Assembly: GCA_934464615.1 (NCBI GenBank)
Contig: CAKSKA010000001.1
Coordinates: 103,159-167,158, forward strand
From: an uncultured Eubacteriales bacterium
GTDB lineage: Bacteria > Bacillota > Clostridia > Oscillospirales > Acutalibacteraceae
Direction of reading: 5' to 3'
Length of the DNA stretch: 64,000 nucleotides
The notes beneath the pieces are model-generated. The model had not been told where the DNA came from and searched no databases. It saw only the letters and a program-made list of their open reading frames with translations. The position numbers were made by a program, and so were the translations under genes. Below, piece by piece: positions 34,785-44,558 of this stretch (position 1 is the stretch's first letter; every line of letters starts with the position of its first letter).

Positions 34785-34923
34785 AAAATCTTCCTTACAG
34801 TTATTATAGAATATATTTTACCATAATTTTAAAATATTTTAAATAAATTTTCCGAATTTCTTTTTTTGTTCATAATTTTAGGTTATAATTACAATGCTTA
34901 TTTACATAAACGGAGATGAAAAT

Positions 34924-37554
34924 GTGTTAAGTCTTAAAAACATTAAAAAGGATTATATTACGGGCAACGAAACGGTGCAGGCGCTTAAAGGCGTAAGTAT
35001 AGACTTTAGGAAAAGCGAGTTTGTATCCATTCTCGGTCAGTCGGGCTGCGGTAAAACAACGCTGCTTAACATTATCGGCGGACTGGATAAATATACAAGC
35101 GGCGACCTTATTATAAGCGGCAGATCCACTAAAGAATTTAAGGACAGGGATTGGGACGCTTACCGCAACCATTCCGTAGGTTTTGTTTTCCAAAGCTATA
35201 ACCTTATTCCGCACCAAACGGTGCTTTCGAATGTTGAGTTGGCCCTGACGCTTTCGGGTGTATCTAAAAAAGAACGCCGCCAAAAAGCCATAGACGCACT
35301 GACAAAGGTAGGGCTTGCGGATCAGATAAACAAAAAGCCCAATCAAATGTCGGGCGGACAAATGCAGCGCGTTGCAATTGCAAGGGCGCTTGTTAATGAT
35401 CCGGAAATATTGCTGGCGGATGAACCCACAGGCGCGCTTGACTCCGCTACAAGTATACAGGTAATGGATATTTTAAAGGAAATATCCAAGGAAAAACTTG
35501 TAATAATGGTAACGCACAATCCCGAACTTGCGGAAAAATATTCAACAAGGATAATACGCGTGCTGGACGGAGAGGTTGTAAGCGACAGTAATCCGTATAC
35601 GGACGAGAGCGTGCTGCCGAAACCCGAAACAGACAAAAAAGCATCAAAAAAGGGAAGGCTTAAATCAATGTCGTTTTTTACGGCACTGTCATTAAGTTTC
35701 AATAACCTTATGACTAAAAAGGGCAGGACTTTTATGACTGCCTTTGCAGGCAGCATAGGAATAATAGGTATAGCCCTTATTTTATCAATATCCGCGGGAC
35801 TTGAAGCATATATTGCCAAAGTAGAGGAGGATACGCTGTCGGGTTATCCGGTAACTATCGAAGAATCCGCGGTGGATTTTACAAGCATGATGAAATCCAT
35901 GATGGGCAAGGATAAGGATACCGCACAGCAGGAAGAAGGCAGAATTTACTCAAACGATGTAATAGTGGATATGATGCAGGCGTTTTCTTCCGGTTCTGCC
36001 GAAAACAACCTTACCGATTTTAAAAAGTATATAGAAAACGGAGATACCGGTATTAAGGATTTGGTTACCGATATACAGTATCAGTACTCTACGCCTATGA
36101 ATATTTATAAAGCCGATACTTCCGACGGTATTGTGCAGGTAAATCCGGGCTGGGTGTTTGAAAAATTGGGAATGACATCGTCCGCACAGCAAAACAACAG
36201 CGTTATGAAAAGCATGACAAAGTCGGACGTATGGGCGCAATTGCTTGATAATGACGAACTTATAAATTCGCAATACGATGTAATTGCCGGAAAGCTGCCG
36301 GAAAATTCACACGAAGCGGTTTTAATAGTTGATAAAAACTCCCAGGTAAGCGACTATACCCTTTACACTCTCGGTCTGCGCGATTTTTCCGAAGTTGAGG
36401 AATTAATGAAAGCAATTATGGCAAATGAAGAATACGAAGTTAAATCCTCGTCATATTCTTTTGATGATATTTTGGGACTTGAGTATAAATTGCTTGTTAA
36501 TACCGACTGTTATGAAAAGGAAAACGGCGTTTGGACAGATAAAAGCAACGATGAAATTTATATGATGAACAAAATAAAAGACGCCGTTACCGTAAAGATA
36601 GTGGGAATATTAAAACCCAATAAGGATGCGACAGCCACGGCAAGTATAGACACGGTGGCGTATAAATCGTCACTTATGACAGAACTTGTAAATGCCGTAA
36701 ACGACAGCGAAATAGTAAAGGAACAAAAGGAAAACAGCGATACGGACGTATTTACCGGACTTAAATTTGCGGGCGGCGAGAAGACCGATTTAACCTACGA
36801 GCAGCTGCAGGAATATATGAGCACATTGCCGCCGCAAAAAGCTGCCGAAATGCAAAGCTATATGCAGCAAATGAAGCAGGCGGGTATGAGTGACGAAAAA
36901 ATACTTGAGGCGTTTGCTTCGTCGGTTGTAAAAACATCAGAGTCGACTTATGAGGAAAATCTTGACAAAATGGGTGTTTCGGAACTTGACAGCCCGTCGG
37001 TTATAAACATTTATCCCAAAGATTTTGCCGCTAAGGACGATATTGCCGATATTATAAGCCGTTATAACGACACGGTGAGTGAAACCGATAAAATCACCTA
37101 TACCGATTATGTCGGAATAATGATGTCCTCGATAACGACTATAATAAATGCCATAAGTTATATACTTATAGCGTTTGTCGCGATTTCACTTGTTGTATCT
37201 TCGATAATGATAGGAATTATAACCTACATTTCCGTACTTGAACGTACAAAGGAAATAGGTATTCTGCGCGCAATAGGCGCTTCCAAACGGGATGTGTCCA
37301 GAGTGTTTAACGCCGAAACGCTGATTATAGGATTTGTTGCCGGCGCTATAGGAATAGGAATTACATTACTGTTGACAATTCCGATAAATGCGCTTATAAG
37401 GAATATTGCAAAAATTTCGGCTACCGCCGTTTTGCCGTGGCAGGGCGCCGTAATTCTTGTAATTATAAGCATGCTGCTTACTTTCCTTGCGGGTACATTC
37501 CCGTCAAGAGTGGCGTCTAAAAAAGATCCCGTAATAGCACTTCGTACTGAATAA
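34924..37554 (+). CDS. MacB-type ABC transporter, fused ATPase + FtsX-like permease
   Basis: Canonical NBD: Walker A GQSGCGKTT, Q-loop VFQSYNL, signature MSGGQMQRVAIARAL, Walker B LLADEPTGALD, H-loop VTHN. This is followed by TM1, a ~440-aa extracytoplasmic domain and three C-terminal TMs. GTG 34924 lies behind GGAG; the tracked ORF starts at ATG 34894. Confidence 0.85.
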   Translation: MLSLKNIKKDYITGNETVQALKGVSIDFRKSEFVSILGQSGCGKTTLLNIIGGLDKYTSGDLIISGRSTKEFKDRDWDAYRNHSVGFVFQSYNLIPHQTVLSNVELALTLSGVSKKERRQKAIDALTKVGLADQINKKPNQMSGGQMQRVAIARALVNDPEILLADEPTGALDSATSIQVMDILKEISKEKLVIMVTHNPELAEKYSTRIIRVLDGEVVSDSNPYTDESVLPKPETDKKASKKGRLKSMSFFTALSLSFNNLMTKKGRTFMTAFAGSIGIIGIALILSISAGLEAYIAKVEEDTLSGYPVTIEESAVDFTSMMKSMMGKDKDTAQQEEGRIYSNDVIVDMMQAFSSGSAENNLTDFKKYIENGDTGIKDLVTDIQYQYSTPMNIYKADTSDGIVQVNPGWVFEKLGMTSSAQQNNSVMKSMTKSDVWAQLLDNDELINSQYDVIAGKLPENSHEAVLIVDKNSQVSDYTLYTLGLRDFSEVEELMKAIMANEEYEVKSSSYSFDDILGLEYKLLVNTDCYEKENGVWTDKSNDEIYMMNKIKDAVTVKIVGILKPNKDATATASIDTVAYKSSLMTELVNAVNDSEIVKEQKENSDTDVFTGLKFAGGEKTDLTYEQLQEYMSTLPPQKAAEMQSYMQQMKQAGMSDEKILEAFASSVVKTSESTYEENLDKMGVSELDSPSVINIYPKDFAAKDDIADIISRYNDTVSETDKITYTDYVGIMMSSITTIINAISYILIAFVAISLVVSSIMIGIITYISVLERTKEIGILRAIGASKRDVSRVFNAETLIIGFVAGAIGIGITLLLTIPINALIRNIAKISATAVLPWQGAVILVIISMLLTFLAGTFPSRVASKKDPVIALRTE

Positions 37555-37565
37555 AGGGGAAAAAT

Positions 37566-38261
37566 ATGGCAAAATTCAATCTTTCAATTTTGAAAAACGA
37601 GGACGGAAATTACAAGCACCTGCTTTATTTGCTGGTGGTACCGGTTTACCTTACCGTGTTTTTTATATGCGAAGCCGTTGTTAAAGACGATTACTATGTA
37701 ACGTATTTACCTATTGACGATAAAATACCGTTTAACGAGTGGTTTGTTATACCGTATTGCTTGTGGTATGTATACCTTGTGGGAATAGGGCTTTATCTTG
37801 TGTTTAAAGACATACCGCAATTTAAAAAATATATGCTTTGTTTGGGTTCGTCCTTCCTTGCGGCTTCGTTTCTTTTCCTTTTTTGGCACAACGGGCAGGA
37901 TTTAAGGGTTAATATCGACGTCCCCGCAAATTTTGCACAGGCATGGGTTAAATCGCTGTATGCGGCGGATACAAACACAAATGTGTGTCCCAGTTTGCAC
38001 GTTGTGGGTTGCTTTGTAGGTGCTTTTGCCGTGTTCAACTGCAAAAAACTTAACCGTCCGTATATAAGGATTTTAACCGTGATTTCCGCCGCTGTTATAA
38101 GCATTTCCACGGTATTTATTAAGCAGCACTCAATAGTTGATGTAATAGTCGCCGTGCCGTATTCGTTTATATTTTACTTTGCGGTTTATGTAATACCGAA
38201 GGTTATACAAAAGCGCAATTTACATAAAAAGGCATACGGCGCCGATATACAGGAAAAATAA
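37566..38261 (+). CDS. PAP2-superfamily integral membrane protein (PAP2_C / lipid phosphotransferase-like)
   Basis: Six hydrophobic segments with CPSLH and KQHSIVDV, which resemble the C2 and C3 (HxxxD) motifs of PAP2 enzymes. Confidence 0.55.
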   Translation: MAKFNLSILKNEDGNYKHLLYLLVVPVYLTVFFICEAVVKDDYYVTYLPIDDKIPFNEWFVIPYCLWYVYLVGIGLYLVFKDIPQFKKYMLCLGSSFLAASFLFLFWHNGQDLRVNIDVPANFAQAWVKSLYAADTNTNVCPSLHVVGCFVGAFAVFNCKKLNRPYIRILTVISAAVISISTVFIKQHSIVDVIVAVPYSFIFYFAVYVIPKVIQKRNLHKKAYGADIQEK

Positions 38262-38283: not shown

Positions 38284-38325
38284 CAGGAAAAGGGTACAAA
38301 AACACCCCTTTTCCTGTTGTTTTTT
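38284..38325 (+). terminator. Intrinsic terminator after the PAP2 gene
   Basis: CAGGAAAAGGG-loop-CCCTTTTCCTG followed by TTGTTTTTTT. Confidence 0.75.
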
Positions 38326-38386: not shown

Positions 38387-41300
38387 ATGAAGCAATATGA
38401 TATATTTGCCGGTGCTGATGAACTGTTTGGGAAAAACGCCGATTCTTATGTTACTTATGCGCCGAATCTGTCGCAGGGCGTTGTATTTGATAAACGGTTT
38501 TTAAATTCATTAAAAGACGGTGCAAAATACGGCGCACGCGCTTTAAAGTGCATCAGAATTACAGAGGATTGCGATTTGCCTGCGCGTATAATAGGGTTTT
38601 ATAAAGTAGAGGACGGTCTGGCACGCAAATGCAAATATGCGGATGTAGGCGCTTTTGCGGTGTACAGCGAAATATTGCCGGGCAGTTTAAATCTTGTAAA
38701 CCCAAAAGCCGCGCAGTATGCGTTTTCAGCGGCGGCGCTTAAAAATCCGTCGGCAAAGTTTTATTGTGTAAATAACGATTTTTTTGCACCTGTACCTGTT
38801 TGGTCAAGCGTTATAAAAAAAACTTATATGCAAAAATACGGTCAGGATATAACCGAAAATTTAATTATGCTTTTCGAGGACGCAAAGGGCTGCAAGCGTT
38901 TCAGAAACAGATATTACGCCTTGACGGCGGAACTTGTAACGGATAATTTTTTGCGTCCGCTTAAAGATATATGCGTCGGTTCCGGTATATCGCTTTACGG
39001 CAGCAAAGCGTTTTCGCTGTCTGTCGCGGAGCAGGTATTGCCGAACAACGCACTTATAGGTATTTGCGATATTTACGACAAACTTTTCCTTTACTGTCCC
39101 GCAGAGTTGCTTGACGGTGCGTTTTTACGCAGATATATACGATTTTTTACATCATTCAAACCGCAGAAAATTGCCGCGGTGTTTTCCGACAATGATATAA
39201 AAAAGCTCTCGCTTAAAAGACTGGCGGCGTTTGCCGACAGACTGCTTGCCGGAGGAATAAGACAGTTCTGTATACCGCAGGGTACGGCGCAAAAAGGCAC
39301 AGACGGTAAAAAAGTGCAAATTTTGAAAAAGTACATACAAAATAATGCCGCCTTGCTTGATACGGGGGAGAGGATAAGCGATGTATTGGCGATTTATCCC
39401 TATTCTTCCGCGGCGGGCAACTTTTGTGCAAATAATATCGGTGCTGTTAAGGAATTCAACACCGTTACGCAAAAGGGAATTGATTTGCTTAACCGTGCCG
39501 ATATACTGTATGACGTTGCGTCGGAGCGCAGTCTCGGCCAGGAAATTAAAATAAGCGGAGCGCTGATAAGCGCCGCAAATAATAAGTATACCTGCCTTGT
39601 GCTGATGCCGTGCGATACACTGACACCCACCGCTGCCGGATTTATACTTAAATACACCGAAAACGGCGGCAGGGTTTATTGCATTGGCGAAAAGCCGTTA
39701 CTTATAGACGGTGTACAAAACAGCCGTATAGACGAAATATCGCAAAGAATCAAGCGCATAGGCGCAAAAGAAATATCACAGTTAAGGGCGGAGAGAACCC
39801 CGTTGTTTGATGATAACTGCATAGACGTTTATTGCTGTAAACTGCCCGACGGCAGCAAACTGTCCTTCGCGGCAAATATAAACGGGGACAGCGGCAGCGT
39901 AAGTTTTGCTTCGTTTGAAAATATTGCGGCGGTTGACACCGTTAACCGTGAACTTTTACCGGTAAATTTAAGCAATAAAATAGGCAAAGTTGCAGGAAAA
40001 CAGGTTATCGACCTTAAAAATTTTGAAAACTCCCATGCGGTTTTCCGCATAGGCGATATACCGCTGCAAAAGCCTAAACAGCCGGAGTATTTGAATTTAT
40101 CACCGTACTTTGATTTGACCGACAGCGGCGACAACACTTTTGTTATAAACAAATGCAGTGTGCGTAAAACCAACGGCAAATGGTCTGCACCTACGTGCAT
40201 AAAAAATGCTCTTAAAAATATGCAACGCGCGTCCCGCAAAAATATTACGGACTTAAAATTTGATTTTGAAATACGCGACTGCGAAAAAATAGGGGATATG
40301 CTGCTTTATTTTGAAAATCAGGCGCCGTATTCCGTATTTATAAACGACATACCCGTAAAAACGGCAGGGGAACCGACTGATATAAGAGAATTTGTTAAAG
40401 AAGGCGTAAACAGTATCCTTATCCGTTCCGAAAGTTTGGTGCAGCGCTTGAAAACGGAAGAAACGGCAATTTCCTGCCTGTTTATTTCAGGAAAGTTTGC
40501 GGTTGTGTCGACTGCTCCCGTAAGGAATGAAAAGTTTGCGGTACGCACAAAAAATGAATTTGTAATTACCGCGTTGCCTGCCGCCGTAAATATAGAACGG
40601 CTGACCGAGAACGGATTTTGGTTTTTCGGTTCCGATATGCTGCTGACTCAGCGTTTCACGTTGGAAGGAGAACCTGACAGCGCCGCACTGCTTAGATTTA
40701 AAAAGTTTAACGCTTTGTGTGCCTGTGTATGTGTAAACGGTGTTGATACAGCGGATATATGGGCACCGCCGTTTAAAACGAACGTGGGAAAATATTTACG
40801 CAAAGGCGAAAACGAAATAAGTATTCGTATTTTTGCGGATAATACAAATCTGCATGCACTTGACGGAATAACGGATGATAATGTCAGTCTTGAGCCCCTC
40901 GGTGCCGTACTGTTTACGGGGGATGAGGAACAGACCGATTATATTTGCTTAAAAGACGTTACCAAAACCTACGTTGACGGCGGAAAAACAATTTACGCCG
41001 TACGGGATGCCGATATAAATATAGGAATCGGAGAATTCACCGTGATTTACGGACCGACAGGCTCGGGTAAAACAACATTGCTTAACATTATCGGCGGAAT
41101 TGACACCTGCGACAGCGGCACGGTTTGCATAGAGGAAAATGATATAAACGAATATTCCGAGTCACGTTTGGCGGATTACAGGCGCAAAAATATCAGTTTT
41201 ATTTTTAAAGACGGCAATCTTTTGGATTATTTAACCGTAAACGATAATATAACGCTGTTTTGCGACAGCAAAAATCAGGTGCTTGATAACCGATTGGTTT

Positions 41301-41635
41301 TGCGTTCCGTAGGACTTGAGGACAAAGCGGACTGTACTGCCGCAAAACTTACCTTGTGCGAACAGCAAAAGGCGGCAATAGCAGGGGCGGTTGCTAAAAA
41401 TCCGCAAATAATACTGTGTGACGAACCGCTTGGAAAACTTAAGCAAAGCGATGCCGCCGAGGTTTTAAATCTTTTAAGAGAAACCTGCAGACTTACAGGC
41501 AAAACCGTAATAATTGCTACGGATAATAAAGCGCTTTGTGCGGCGGCTGACCGTGTTATAACGATCAGCGACGGCTGTATTACGGCAAACGAAGTAAATC
41601 CGAAACCGGCAAAGCTTGAAGAAATAGAGTGGTGA
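38387..41635 (+). CDS. Large cytoplasmic protein: ~850-aa uncharacterised (glycosidase-like) N-terminal module fused to a degenerate ABC ATPase domain
   Basis: The C-terminal ~230 aa have Walker A GPTGSGKTT and Walker B ILCDEP, but FIFKD for the Q-loop, LTLCEQ for LSGGQ, and ATDN for the H-loop. No TM segment or signal peptide is evident. The N-terminal module has jelly-roll-like GxNxIxIR strands. Confidence 0.8.
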   Translation: MKQYDIFAGADELFGKNADSYVTYAPNLSQGVVFDKRFLNSLKDGAKYGARALKCIRITEDCDLPARIIGFYKVEDGLARKCKYADVGAFAVYSEILPGSLNLVNPKAAQYAFSAAALKNPSAKFYCVNNDFFAPVPVWSSVIKKTYMQKYGQDITENLIMLFEDAKGCKRFRNRYYALTAELVTDNFLRPLKDICVGSGISLYGSKAFSLSVAEQVLPNNALIGICDIYDKLFLYCPAELLDGAFLRRYIRFFTSFKPQKIAAVFSDNDIKKLSLKRLAAFADRLLAGGIRQFCIPQGTAQKGTDGKKVQILKKYIQNNAALLDTGERISDVLAIYPYSSAAGNFCANNIGAVKEFNTVTQKGIDLLNRADILYDVASERSLGQEIKISGALISAANNKYTCLVLMPCDTLTPTAAGFILKYTENGGRVYCIGEKPLLIDGVQNSRIDEISQRIKRIGAKEISQLRAERTPLFDDNCIDVYCCKLPDGSKLSFAANINGDSGSVSFASFENIAAVDTVNRELLPVNLSNKIGKVAGKQVIDLKNFENSHAVFRIGDIPLQKPKQPEYLNLSPYFDLTDSGDNTFVINKCSVRKTNGKWSAPTCIKNALKNMQRASRKNITDLKFDFEIRDCEKIGDMLLYFENQAPYSVFINDIPVKTAGEPTDIREFVKEGVNSILIRSESLVQRLKTEETAISCLFISGKFAVVSTAPVRNEKFAVRTKNEFVITALPAAVNIERLTENGFWFFGSDMLLTQRFTLEGEPDSAALLRFKKFNALCACVCVNGVDTADIWAPPFKTNVGKYLRKGENEISIRIFADNTNLHALDGITDDNVSLEPLGAVLFTGDEEQTDYICLKDVTKTYVDGGKTIYAVRDADINIGIGEFTVIYGPTGSGKTTLLNIIGGIDTCDSGTVCIEENDINEYSESRLADYRRKNISFIFKDGNLLDYLTVNDNITLFCDSKNQVLDNRLVLRSVGLEDKADCTAAKLTLCEQQKAAIAGAVAKNPQIILCDEPLGKLKQSDAAEVLNLLRETCRLTGKTVIIATDNKALCAAADRVITISDGCITANEVNPKPAKLEEIEW

Positions 41636-41639
41636 AAAT

Positions 41640-44558
41640 ATGATTTTTAAGTTGTTAAAAAAGGAAATTGTCGGGAATATCGGCAGATTTGCATCCATAG
41701 CCTTAACCACACTTATAGGCGTTGCGTTTCTGTCGGGATTCTGGTCCGGTGTGCCGGATATGGAAAAAACGGCAGACGACTATTATATTAATTCAAATTT
41801 TCACGATATTAAAATAAATTCGGACAAAGGCTTTACAAAACAGGATTTAAAAGCAACCGAGGATCTGGATTATGTAAAAAAAGCACAGGCGGTATATTCG
41901 TTTTACTGCCTTGCCGGTATAAACGAAGCCGGCAGTTATACAACGTATGTAAGAAGCGTTAATATGGATACGCTTCAGGCAAATGATGCCGGTATAATAG
42001 ATACTCCGCAGCTTATTGAAGGCAGTTATCCCGTTACAAACAATACCTGCCTTATGGTACGCTCGGCAGCGCTTAAATCCGATGTTAAAATAGGCGACAG
42101 AATATATTTAACCACAAATACGGATAACTGCACAACCACCGTGTTTACCGTAACGGGTTTTGTAAGCGATCCGGAATTTACATCGGGAATAAAGGAAAAT
42201 GCGCCCGTAGGCAGCTCTAAAACCGAGATGGCAATTTATGTAAGCGAAAACATTTTTGTACCCGATGCAATGTATAACGAAATATTGTTAAAACTCAATA
42301 CGACACTCTCGCTTTCTTCTTTCGGTAAAAAATATGCGTCTGCCGTGCAGGAAGCAAAAACACAACTTTCCCTTATAGGCGAACAGCGCTCAAGCGATTT
42401 CAGCAATGATATGTCAGGTCAGTATCAAAGCGACATTGATAAAGCGCAAAGGCAGTACGAGTATATTAAAAGCGAATCCGAAGGCAAACTTAAATCTTTA
42501 AAAGACGCAATAGCCGCTGCCGAAAAAAGAATACCGGAACTTGAAACCGAAATTGAGGCGGCCAAGGCCGACCTGCAACAAAAAAAGCAAGAACTCGATA
42601 AAGTGTCCGCAAACGCTTCGGGACGTGTAACGTCCGGTACCGCAAGCGCCGCCGGCGAGACGGGCTCGTCATCTTCTTCGTCTTCCGCACCGTCGGCTCC
42701 CGCGCAAGACAGCGAGTATGAAAAGGCGCTTGCCGCATACAACAGCGCGCAGGAAGCATTAAACCAAAAAGAAAAAGAACTTGATAACAAACGTAATTCT
42801 TTGGTTACCTATAAAGCGGAATATACGGCGCTTGAAAAAACTTATGAGCAGCGGATGAACAGTGCCGAAAGAAATCTTGAACAGGTAACGAGTGACGGCA
42901 GCGATGACTACACGCAGGCATGGTATGTATATACAAGGGACGATAACGTAAGCTATAAGAGTTTTGTTGCAAATATTAATAAAATAAAGGCTATGGCATT
43001 TTTGTTCCCGCTGCTTTTTTACAGTGTTGCAATAGCGGCGGTGTTAAGTACCGTTACGCATACATTTACACAACAGCAAAAACGCATGGGGCTTATGCTG
43101 GCACAAGGACTTAACCGTAAAACCGTATTTGTACATAACTGCGCTTTTGTGCTTTCGGCAACCCTTGCCGGAAGCGTAGTCGGTTGTATATTGGGTATAA
43201 CGGTATTGCCGCAAATTATGTACCGCACATACAGCGTTGTATTTGATTTTCCGCCCATAAAAATACGCTTTGTGCCGTATGTTGTTTTGGGCAGTATTGT
43301 TTTAACGGTTTTGCTTGTGCTTGCGGTATCCGTATTAAAGCTTAAAGACCTTATTAAGCAAACGCCGGCAAGCCTTATACAGCAAAAGCAGTATGTAAAA
43401 GGCAAAAAAGTACCGGCGGAAAAAGGTTTTATTTGTAAAAGACTGAACATACAGTGGAAAACTGCCGTTAGGAATGTATCGCTTTATAAAGGCAGGGCAT
43501 TTGTATCGCTTTTAAGCATTGCAGGGTTTACCGCCCTTATTTTTGCATCATTCGGAATTTTAAATTCGGTAAGTTCGCTTGAAAATAAACAGCACAATTT
43601 GCAGCCTTATGACGTTTCGGTGCAGCTGCGTGTTGCCGATTATACATCCAAACCCGAAATTATGCAGTATTTGGAAAACGGGGAAAAGGTAAGCGATTAC
43701 ACATATGTTCATACCGCACAGGTAAAGACGCTTGTAAACGATAAAACAGTGGAAATTACGGTATATGCACCGACGCAGACCGACAAATTCACACAGTTTA
43801 TAAAACTGGATTCTGCCATAGGCAAAAACGAACTCGGCAGCAGCGATGTAATAATAAGCCGTAATTTTGCAAAGCAAAACAAGGTAAAAAAAGGCGACGG
43901 ACTTACGTTTATTATAGGCGGCAAGCAAACCGAGCTTACGGTAACTGCAATAGTGAAAAACTATATAGGCAATTTTGCCGTGGTGGGCTCCGATATATAT
44001 TCCGACAGTTTTGCCGACGGTAAATTTACACCTGCATTGCTTATTAAAAACAGCAGCAGTATTGAAGATACCGCACAACAGGCAACCGAACTTATGGGTA
44101 CGGGCGACGTCGGCACGGTAAATTATACTGCGGATACATTCGGCATTTTTAAGGGAACTGCCGAAAGACTTACAAAAGTTATAATAATGCTTATAATAAC
44201 CGCAGGTGTTTTGTGTGTGGCAGTGCTTTATTCGGCAGCGGATATAAATATTTGTGAGCGCACTGCCGAGTTTGCAAGGCTGCAGATACTCGGTTGCGGC
44301 AAATCCGGCGCAGCGGCTTATGTTTACCGCGAAAATGCAATTATTGCGGCGCTCGGCCTTATTATAGGACTTATTGCCGGTGTAATTTTAAATACGGCGG
44401 TAATGTCGGCTGCGGATATGAGCGATGTAATGTTCAGCAGAAGTATAAGTCCTGTCTCTTTTGCGGCGGCAATAGCTGCGGCTGTGGTTTTTGTACTTAT
44501 ACTTAATACCGCAACAAGGATAAGGATAGGCAAAATAAGCACGGAGGATACAAACTAA
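41640..44558 (+). CDS. ABC transporter permease with two fused FtsX/MacB-type 4-TM units
   Basis: Eight predicted TMs arranged 1+3 / 1+3. There are large extracytoplasmic domains after TM1 and TM5. The first carries a coiled-coil hairpin split by a Ser-rich linker (GETGSSSSSSSAPSAP). Starts 4 nt after the upstream stop. Confidence 0.85.
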   Translation: MIFKLLKKEIVGNIGRFASIALTTLIGVAFLSGFWSGVPDMEKTADDYYINSNFHDIKINSDKGFTKQDLKATEDLDYVKKAQAVYSFYCLAGINEAGSYTTYVRSVNMDTLQANDAGIIDTPQLIEGSYPVTNNTCLMVRSAALKSDVKIGDRIYLTTNTDNCTTTVFTVTGFVSDPEFTSGIKENAPVGSSKTEMAIYVSENIFVPDAMYNEILLKLNTTLSLSSFGKKYASAVQEAKTQLSLIGEQRSSDFSNDMSGQYQSDIDKAQRQYEYIKSESEGKLKSLKDAIAAAEKRIPELETEIEAAKADLQQKKQELDKVSANASGRVTSGTASAAGETGSSSSSSSAPSAPAQDSEYEKALAAYNSAQEALNQKEKELDNKRNSLVTYKAEYTALEKTYEQRMNSAERNLEQVTSDGSDDYTQAWYVYTRDDNVSYKSFVANINKIKAMAFLFPLLFYSVAIAAVLSTVTHTFTQQQKRMGLMLAQGLNRKTVFVHNCAFVLSATLAGSVVGCILGITVLPQIMYRTYSVVFDFPPIKIRFVPYVVLGSIVLTVLLVLAVSVLKLKDLIKQTPASLIQQKQYVKGKKVPAEKGFICKRLNIQWKTAVRNVSLYKGRAFVSLLSIAGFTALIFASFGILNSVSSLENKQHNLQPYDVSVQLRVADYTSKPEIMQYLENGEKVSDYTYVHTAQVKTLVNDKTVEITVYAPTQTDKFTQFIKLDSAIGKNELGSSDVIISRNFAKQNKVKKGDGLTFIIGGKQTELTVTAIVKNYIGNFAVVGSDIYSDSFADGKFTPALLIKNSSSIEDTAQQATELMGTGDVGTVNYTADTFGIFKGTAERLTKVIIMLIITAGVLCVAVLYSAADINICERTAEFARLQILGCGKSGAAAYVYRENAIIAALGLIIGLIAGVILNTAVMSAADMSDVMFSRSISPVSFAAAIAAAVVFVLILNTATRIRIGKISTEDTN

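Follow-up and report, generated by a model that had tools for sequence, protein, structure and literature searches.

The locus and the fused gene

We analysed a 64,000-nucleotide stretch of DNA from an uncultured Eubacteriales bacterium (contig CAKSKA010000001.1; the whole stretch is called the window here) and focused on the gene at positions 38387-41635. Its product of 1082 amino acids (aa) joins a module resembling glycoside hydrolase family 106 (GH106) to a nucleotide-binding domain (NBD) of the ATP-binding cassette (ABC) superfamily, and several motifs of this NBD are degenerate. The features on which the analysis rests are listed below, with the methods that support them, including AlphaFold2 (AF2) models and their predicted local distance difference test (pLDDT) values.

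38387-41635, + strand: fused open reading frame (ORF), 1082 aa, with GH106-like module, short linker and degenerate ABC NBD (ORF translation, AF2 model, Pfam)
38387-40924, + strand: N-terminal GH106-like module, about 846 aa (AF2 model, Foldseek)
40925-40939, + strand: flexible linker, residues 847-851 (pLDDT below 50)
40937-41635, + strand: ABC NBD of the MacB/FtsE/LolD type, residues 851-1082 (Pfam, NCBIfam, alignments, Foldseek)
41640-44558, + strand: double-FtsX permease in a single chain, 972 aa, starting 4 nt past the stop of the fused gene (Pfam, AF2 model)
34894-37554, + strand: upstream MacB-like NBD-FtsX protein, 886 aa, motifs fully canonical, used as internal reference (Pfam, NCBIfam, alignment)

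A GGGAG ribosome-binding site precedes the ATG of the fused ORF, and neither a signal peptide nor a transmembrane (TM) segment was found in its 1082-aa product. A separately translated NBD was ruled out, as the frame is continuous and contains no Met in residues ~800-941. The AF2 model of the fused protein had a mean pLDDT of 84.7 and a predicted TM-score (pTM) of 0.73.

The ABC domain and the state of its motifs

The only Pfam family found in the fused protein was ABC_tran (PF00005), which matched residues 873-1015 with 79.6 bits (cut-off 25); the canonical upstream NBD (34894-35640) scored 120.8 bits. The top NCBIfam models for the C-terminal domain were FtsE, DevA, MacB, LolD, and DarD, and the top PDB sequence matches of the NBD were MJ0796, MacB, BceA, and LolD. 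At the structural level, MacB and MJ0796 were again the best C-terminal matches, with a TM-score of 0.81 between the modelled NBD and that of E. coli MacB (Foldseek). Residues 851-1082 are a genuine NBD of the ABC superfamily, from the type VII (MacB/FtsE/LolD) clade, and an FtsX-type permease gene adjoins them.

We placed the motifs by residue-by-residue alignment to MJ0796, E. coli MacB, and the upstream NBD (33% identity):

41051-41077, + strand: Walker A GPTGSGKTT, residues 889-897, intact
41207-41209, + strand: Q-loop K941; Gln in 12/12 stand-alone sister NBDs
41348-41362, + strand: signature LTLCE, residues 988-992, in place of LSGGE/Q; both Gly lost
41408-41428, + strand: Walker B IILCDEP, residues 1008-1014; Asp and catalytic Glu intact
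41429-41443, + strand: D-loop LGKLK, residues 1015-1019, in place of TGALD; Asp replaced by Lys (K1019)
41522-41524, + strand: H-loop D1046, canonically His; Asn in strain P0001/L043

The Q-loop FIFKD lies opposite FVFQQ, replacing Gln by Lys, the signature LTLCEQQKAAIAGA is aligned opposite LSGGQQQRVAIARA, and the H-loop ATDN lies opposite VTHD. The A-loop Tyr is retained (TKTY), and an unusual Cys preceding DEP in Walker B is common to the fused and the stand-alone sister NBDs. Among the residues expected of a competent ABC NBD, the domain has the Walker A Lys-Ser/Thr, the A-loop aromatic residue, and the Walker B Asp and Glu; it lacks the Q-loop Gln, the signature glycines, and the H-loop His together with the D-loop Asp. 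The first-pass annotation, made from the sequence of the window, had described this combination, the A-loop aside: Walker A and Walker B intact, including the catalytic Glu, next to a Q-loop Lys, an LTLCE signature, a D-loop Lys, and an H-loop Asp. The alignments bear out every one of these motif calls, within a domain that the Pfam ABC_tran model recognises. All four positions that are degenerate here show no variation among the 12 stand-alone sister NBDs, so the deviation lies far outside ordinary family variation.

Outside the classical ABC motifs, the canonical stand-alone NBDs (L054-L065) and the fused NBDs share a C-terminal tail, '...P....ERIEW' (41609-41632, residues 1075-1082), a candidate contact site peculiar to this family of permeases.

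Distribution and gene order of the fusion

A word-index homologue search, run with the full protein and with its N-terminal 850 aa, retrieved nothing beyond the 99% cluster and unrelated ABC proteins. When the N-terminal 850 aa were used in an exhaustive HMMER search, nine co-linear proteins (50%-identity metagenome clusters) of 1009-1085 aa and 26-36% identity were retrieved, all of them ending in an NBD. In a profile search of 101 related genomes, full-length matches were present in 13 of 20 genomes from the window's genus (that of the window included), the fused gene was absent from 7, and no full-length fused protein was found in other genera. There, the profile matched two separate genes, one for a stand-alone GH106-like protein of ~990 aa and one for a stand-alone NBD of ~240 aa, the latter directly upstream of a permease homologue. 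The nearest stand-alone NBDs came from metagenome-assembled genomes of Oscillospiraceae, Ruminococcus, and Faecalibacterium type. A contig scan with a single protein yielded no matches in the genomes scanned, and a contig scan with an alignment was dominated by Walker A pattern matches to ordinary NBDs.

The loci of the nine relatives are syntenic with the window. The permease gene lies 3' of the fused gene in all nine, and also in strain L043; further downstream, acpP (minus strand) and aroC are found at the eight loci whose contig reaches that far (8/8), followed by proS where the contig extends. On the upstream side, ligA (minus strand) is present at 4/9 loci and the MacB-like gene at 3/9. 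No second NBD gene is conserved in the operon at the relatives' loci.

For the stand-alone system, taken as ancestral, four other genera showed no conserved synteny with aroC and proS. At one locus from another family of the order (L072, genome G226), ligA lies ~3.6 kb upstream of a canonical stand-alone NBD-permease pair, a linkage not seen in the other three genera checked; this hints that the ancestral stand-alone system was already near ligA. The window's own genome also carries, outside the window, a stand-alone GH106-like paralogue (1061-aa frame, G000:C10:63420-64826), and a canonical stand-alone NBD with an FtsX-type permease of ~768 aa (G000:C13:34519-37465).

Graded loss of motifs in the fused NBDs

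The 12 stand-alone NBDs, which come from several families of the order and lie beside permease homologues, are strictly canonical and nearly identical in their motifs (GPSGAGKTT, FVFQFYN, LSGGEQQRV, LLLCDEP, TGALD, and ITHN). The fused NBDs of the genus presented a series of states:

G213: close to canonical; signature LSSGQ, while Gln, Asp and His are all present
G205 / P0074: signature LSAGQ, Asn instead of His
G207: signature LSVGE, Gly instead of His
Most other lineages, including the window: without Gln, without Gly-Gly, without His
G208 and G202 (loci L051, L052): natural Walker B Glu-to-Gln change, IICDQP
P0076: Walker B no longer present
G209 / P0072: neither Walker A nor Walker B retained

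The Walker B Glu-to-Gln change is the classic hydrolysis-dead substitution, which experimenters introduce to trap NBD dimers in the ATP-bound state.

To describe the series by position, we took the residues that do not vary among the stand-alone NBDs and calculated, for each, the fraction of 18 non-redundant fused NBDs that retain it:

A-loop Tyr: 0.89
Walker A G-K-T-T: 0.89-0.94
Walker B Asp: 0.94
Walker B Glu: 0.78
Post-Q-loop N-L…T..E-N: 0.83-1.00
D-loop Asp: 0.72
Signature second Gly: 0.28 (5/18)
Q-loop Gln: 0.17 (3/18)
H-loop His: 0.11
Signature first Gly: 0.00 (0/18)

Retention of the binding residues together with loss of those for hydrolysis and for the ATP sandwich is the pattern expected if, as the first-pass annotation predicted from the motifs, the domain binds nucleotide with little or no hydrolysis. 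The selective retention of binding residues suggests that nucleotide binding still matters in most lineages, and the loss of sandwich and catalytic residues suggests that normal hydrolysis does not.

In a maximum-likelihood tree of the full-length proteins, the near-canonical members have short branches and form one clade. Their placement points to independent degeneration in at least three lineages (the other clade, G204, and P0076).

At loci L041 (P0076) and L042 (P0072), where the NBD has lost Walker motifs, the permease is only 587 and 720 aa long, with a weak Pfam FtsX match or none. This suggests that the whole system is decaying further there.

The N-terminal module, a GH106 fold without its catalytic residues

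No Pfam glycoside hydrolase model matched the fused protein (E-value limit 0.01), and Pfam Glyco_hydro_106 (PF17132) was reached only by the ~990-aa stand-alone relatives. At the structural level, the best full-length Foldseek matches of the AF2 model were the GH106 alpha-L-rhamnosidases RHA-P (6q2f, E-value 2e-20) and BT_0986 (5mwk, 4e-16; also 5mqm), over 864-881 columns. The module consists of a partial barrel, a GH42M-like middle domain, and beta-sandwich domains. Thus, the N-terminal 850 aa share the multi-domain fold of Ram106B-type GH106 enzymes (BT_0986 5MQM/5MWK, RHA-P 6Q2F; PMC6828813).

We compared the catalytic positions in an alignment of 43 stand-alone and 10 fused proteins, in which equivalences are approximate because the barrel region has ~20% identity. 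The barrel motifs PFWSWN, GGFxxHxRxGL, YDExxWPSG, FTDEP, TGH, PGxD, the general-base Glu, and HLxxYxxxGxRKRD are deleted or replaced in every fused protein. The window protein lacks the first ~100 aa of GH106, including PFWSWN and GGFxxHxRxGL. Unlike Ram106B-type enzymes, it also lacks the DE of FTDEP, the His of TGH, the Asp of PGxD, and the general-base Glu, whose roles were described for Ram106B (PMC6828813); these columns hold N129, N130, S206, Y236, and V265, and are variable among the fused proteins. The latter do keep the structural Gly, Asn, and Phe residues in their middle and beta-sandwich domains. Since every catalytic and metal residue of the Ram106B-type relatives is replaced, we regard the N-terminal module as a pseudo-glycosidase. 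The ~990-aa stand-alone relatives from the same bacterial family, which are distant in sequence, lack a signal peptide, as judged by eye from two N-termini.

The permease partner

Pfam detected two FtsX stretches in the 972-aa permease (41640-44558). Its AF2 model (pLDDT 81) shows two MacB-like halves with eight long TM helices in total; in each half, a first TM helix is followed by an outer Porter-like domain and then by three further TM helices, and short cytoplasmic helices lie between the halves. Part of the first outer domain is a coiled-coil hairpin (residues 230-419), built from two long helices (230-326 and 354-419). The tip of this hairpin, residues 326-354 (42615-42701), is a disordered low-complexity segment of poly-Ser/Ala/Gly (pLDDT <50).

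The best Foldseek match of the permease was E. coli YbbP (9ge6), followed by BceB, LolE, and MacB. As in YbbP and BceB, there are two FtsX halves with an outer domain after the first TM helix; the ten TM helices of that architecture, which include a linking pair, are reduced to eight in the model. In the YbbAP complex, two YbbA subunits bind one YbbP, each on one coupling helix (PMC12646458). By analogy with this best match, two copies of the fused protein may sit on one permease. The homodimer assumed in the first-pass annotation is consistent with this analogy, as the permease is a single chain with two FtsX halves.

Purifying selection and rapid evolution

The same motifs were found in five independent assemblies of the species (a 90%-identity cluster of 5 sequences from NCBI, ENA, and Logan), which differ there only in Asp or Asn at the H-loop; this was also the sole amino-acid difference in the NBD between the window and strain P0001/L043. 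Comparing this same pair of strains, we obtained the following Nei-Gojobori counts, which are small, and ratios of non-synonymous to synonymous rates (dN/dS):

Fused gene, whole: 17 synonymous, 10 non-synonymous, dN/dS 0.17
NBD part only: 5 synonymous, 1 non-synonymous, dN/dS 0.06
Permease: 22 synonymous, 11 non-synonymous, dN/dS 0.14
aroC (partial): 6 synonymous, 2 non-synonymous, dN/dS 0.10

These counts point to purifying selection on both the fused gene and the permease. Moreover, ORFs of more than 1000 aa are intact in all 13 same-genus copies and in the nine relatives. Sequencing error and strain-specific decay, which the first-pass annotation had linked to a finding of canonical motifs in orthologues, were ruled out by the five assemblies with identical motifs, the dN/dS of ~0.17, and the degenerate orthologues; canonical motifs are not the rule, and the degeneracy is lineage-wide and under purifying selection. 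Judged from the sequences, the fused gene is neither an artefact nor a pseudogene.

The rate of change is a different matter. Identities to the window proteins, measured in the same genomes, were:

ProS: 81-87%
LigA: 69-71%
AroC: 65-74%
MacB-like protein: 54-72%
Fused NBD: 26-48%
Permease: 25-39%
GH106-like module: 27-36%

Stand-alone NBDs had a median pairwise identity of 68% across different families. From this contrast, the fused gene and the permease evolve jointly and much faster than their surroundings, with frames that are still open and constrained.

A proposed docking or regulatory subunit rather than a motor

Starting from the observed domain identities, motif states, fusion, graded loss, purifying selection, and conserved gene order, we propose that ORF 38387-41635 encodes the cytoplasmic subunit of a type VII (MacB/FtsEX/YbbAP-like) ABC complex with the downstream double-FtsX permease. 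In this account, the ancestor of a single genus joined a canonical stand-alone NBD (GPSGAGKTT / FVFQ / LSGGE / LLLCDEP / TGALD / ITHN) to the C-terminal end of a cytoplasmic GH106-like protein, whose catalytic residues were already gone or soon disappeared. From then on, the pair evolved two to three times faster than its neighbours. Next, the Q-loop Gln, the signature glycines, and the H-loop His disappeared from the NBD, as did, in the window species, the D-loop Asp; these residues close the ATP sandwich and catalyse hydrolysis. What remained were the A-loop Tyr, Walker A, the Asp and Glu of Walker B, and the post-Q-loop segment that presumably touches the permease.

A composite ATP site is built from Walker A and B with the A-, Q-, and H-loops from one NBD and the other's signature (PMC7756269). 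Because a single window NBD is defective on both faces, neither composite site would be consensus, whether it pairs with a second copy or with any other NBD. With two copies docked on one permease, as we suppose, the domain would still bind nucleotide and would probably hydrolyse it poorly or not at all. Its role would then be not that of a motor but that of a docking or regulatory element, holding the dead glycosidase (which may be a glycan-binding module) at the permease. On the strength of the sequence comparisons, we consider it reasonably probable that the fused NBD is such an ATP-binding, hydrolysis-poor docking or regulatory subunit. The first-pass annotation had likewise proposed nucleotide binding with little hydrolysis and a regulatory or scaffolding role; this is the best-supported reading, and the role itself we infer.

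Several observations weigh against this proposal. The Walker B Glu is intact, so residual activity is possible, and replacement of the H-loop His by Asn or Gln is tolerated in some ABC proteins (ABCC1, cited in PMC7756269). Two lineages (G209/P0072 and P0076) lack Walker A or Walker B, which implies that at least these do not need nucleotide binding. As for the 2:1 stoichiometry, it is drawn by analogy, and YbbP has 10 TM helices where the model of the permease has 8. Finally, the rapid evolution of the whole pair would also fit a weakly selected system.

The same observations bear on other explanations. The domain could be a working, slower, non-canonical ATPase, in which Walker A, the Asp-Glu pair of Walker B, and the A-loop are enough to sustain a low turnover and with it mechanotransmission via the permease. 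Glu1013 and Lys895 are intact, and retention of these catalytic positions in 78-94% of lineages would be hard to explain if nucleotide chemistry were irrelevant; the tolerance of some H-loop substitutions in other ABC proteins (PMC7756269) would also allow it. However, four motifs are altered together, and the signature glycines are replaced by the bulkier Leu and Cys, which are expected to hinder the gamma-phosphate contact across the dimer. In addition, G208 and G202 carry the natural Walker B Glu-to-Gln change, catalytic positions vary freely among lineages, and the H-loop is polymorphic (Asp/Asn) even between strains. We therefore hold an active ATPase to be unlikely. We find it very unlikely that the gene is a functionless relic, with motif loss reflecting relaxed selection toward pseudogenisation. 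Such a relic would account for a pair that evolves far faster than the neighbouring genes, is absent from 7/20 same-genus genomes searched, and in two lineages combines Walker motif loss with permeases shortened to 587 and 720 aa. Yet frames of more than 1000 codons stay open in the 13 same-genus copies and the nine relatives despite 26-37% identity, strain-level dN/dS is 0.14-0.17, retention is non-random across alignment columns, and both gene order and translational coupling are conserved.

The degenerate NBD could also be half of a heterodimer with a canonical NBD encoded elsewhere, leaving one active site. The NBD-permease pair on contig C13 (G000:C13:34519-37465) offers a candidate partner, and one degenerate site is common among heterodimeric ABC exporters (PMC7756269). 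In known asymmetric pairs, however, the defects are split, with Walker B or the H-loop affected in one NBD and the signature in the other, so that one consensus site is left. By comparison with those pairs (PMC7756269), the window NBD appears defective on both faces, with the Q- and H-loops on one and the signature and D-loop on the other, and the operon has no conserved second NBD gene, which makes a heterodimer highly improbable.

A more far-reaching version of the docking or regulatory subunit, which we put forward as speculation and consider quite unlikely, is a type VII machine turned into a transmembrane switch that works without hydrolysis. In this scheme, the dead GH106 module would recognise a glycan in the cytoplasm (a cell-wall precursor containing rhamnose, for example). 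Glycan binding and the occupancy of the degenerate sites by ATP would jointly determine the conformation of the long extracellular coiled-coil hairpin of the permease. If true, this would be a ligand- or nucleotide-gated signalling or scaffolding system without counterpart among described ABC systems.

Comparison with known systems and significance

To our knowledge, the characterised type VII ABC systems (MacB, LolCDE, FtsEX, BceAB, HrtBA, and YbbAP) are all ATP-driven, with hydrolysis by canonical NBDs. The window system has the NBD family, the FtsX-type TM fold, and the NBD-then-permease order in common with the mechanotransmission systems MacB, LolCDE, and FtsEX, but in its NBD the Gln of the Q-loop, the glycines of LSGGQ, the Asp of the D-loop, and the His of the H-loop are missing. 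Accessory modules on NBDs are known from the carbohydrate-binding domain of Wzt and the regulatory domains of MalK and MetN; by likeness to these, a cytoplasmic module on an NBD could couple ligand recognition to the transporter. Those accessory domains are small, at 100-150 aa, and lie at the C-terminus of active ATPases, whereas the window module occupies the N-terminus, spans 850 aa, descends from an enzyme fold, and is joined to a degenerate ATPase.

By sequence and fold, the complex belongs to the NBD and permease superfamily of the type VII ABC systems, and it works most like one of YbbAP architecture. E. coli YbbP (YbbAP(-TesA), PDB 9GE6/9GE7/9GE8; PMC12646458) is likewise a single chain with two pseudo-symmetric FtsX halves, each with a Porter-type outer domain. 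YbbA belongs to the same MacB/LolD/YbbA clade as the window NBD, and two NBD copies per permease are expected. The two systems differ in that YbbA is a small canonical ATPase and the window NBD is degenerate with an 850-aa N-terminal module, and in that YbbP has 10 TM helices and no coiled-coil hairpin, versus 8 modelled TM helices and a hairpin in the window permease. No TesA-like partner was identified for the window system.

Heterodimeric ABC exporters (TM287/288, TmrAB, CFTR NBD1, and Pdr5; PMC7756269) have also lost catalytic motifs naturally while keeping nucleotide binding, as predicted for the window NBD; their degenerate site is a structural or regulatory ATP site (PMC7756269). They always keep one consensus site, whereas both sites would be degenerate in the window NBD, presumably a homodimer, and their fold class is type I/IV rather than type VII.

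In our literature search, we found no description of a type VII system with a presumably homodimeric NBD degenerate on both faces, nor of an NBD fused to a glycoside-hydrolase fold. The dead GH106 fold and the graded series of degeneration, confined to one genus, go beyond what the first-pass annotation had noticed. The fused protein would be a rare double pseudoenzyme, judging by the residues lost in both of its parts. Moreover, the within-genus series, from canonical through G213 and binding residues only to complete loss, is a natural experiment on which NBD functions survive without hydrolysis, with docking, nucleotide sensing, and dimerisation as candidates. The scope of the fused system is one uncultured gut genus of Clostridia.

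Upstream neighbours of the fused operon

Two further features lie between the MacB-like gene and the fused gene:

37566-38261: gene for a PAP2-family membrane protein
38284-38325, + strand: intrinsic terminator 3' of the PAP2 gene, with an 11-bp stem (CAGGAAAAGGG / CCCTTTTCCTG) followed by the T-run TTGTTTTTT, read from the sequence

The terminator sets the fused-gene operon apart from the genes upstream; the scan reports the same hairpin on the opposite strand. The PAP2 gene was not called at the three relatives' loci that have both the MacB-like and the fused gene (L033, L037, and L038), so we do not regard it as a conserved member of the cluster. The MacB-like protein, compared with those at L038 and L073, ranges from 878 to 1004 aa within the genus; its identity to the window copy falls to ~42-54% in one clade, and it is less conserved than ligA, aroC, and proS.

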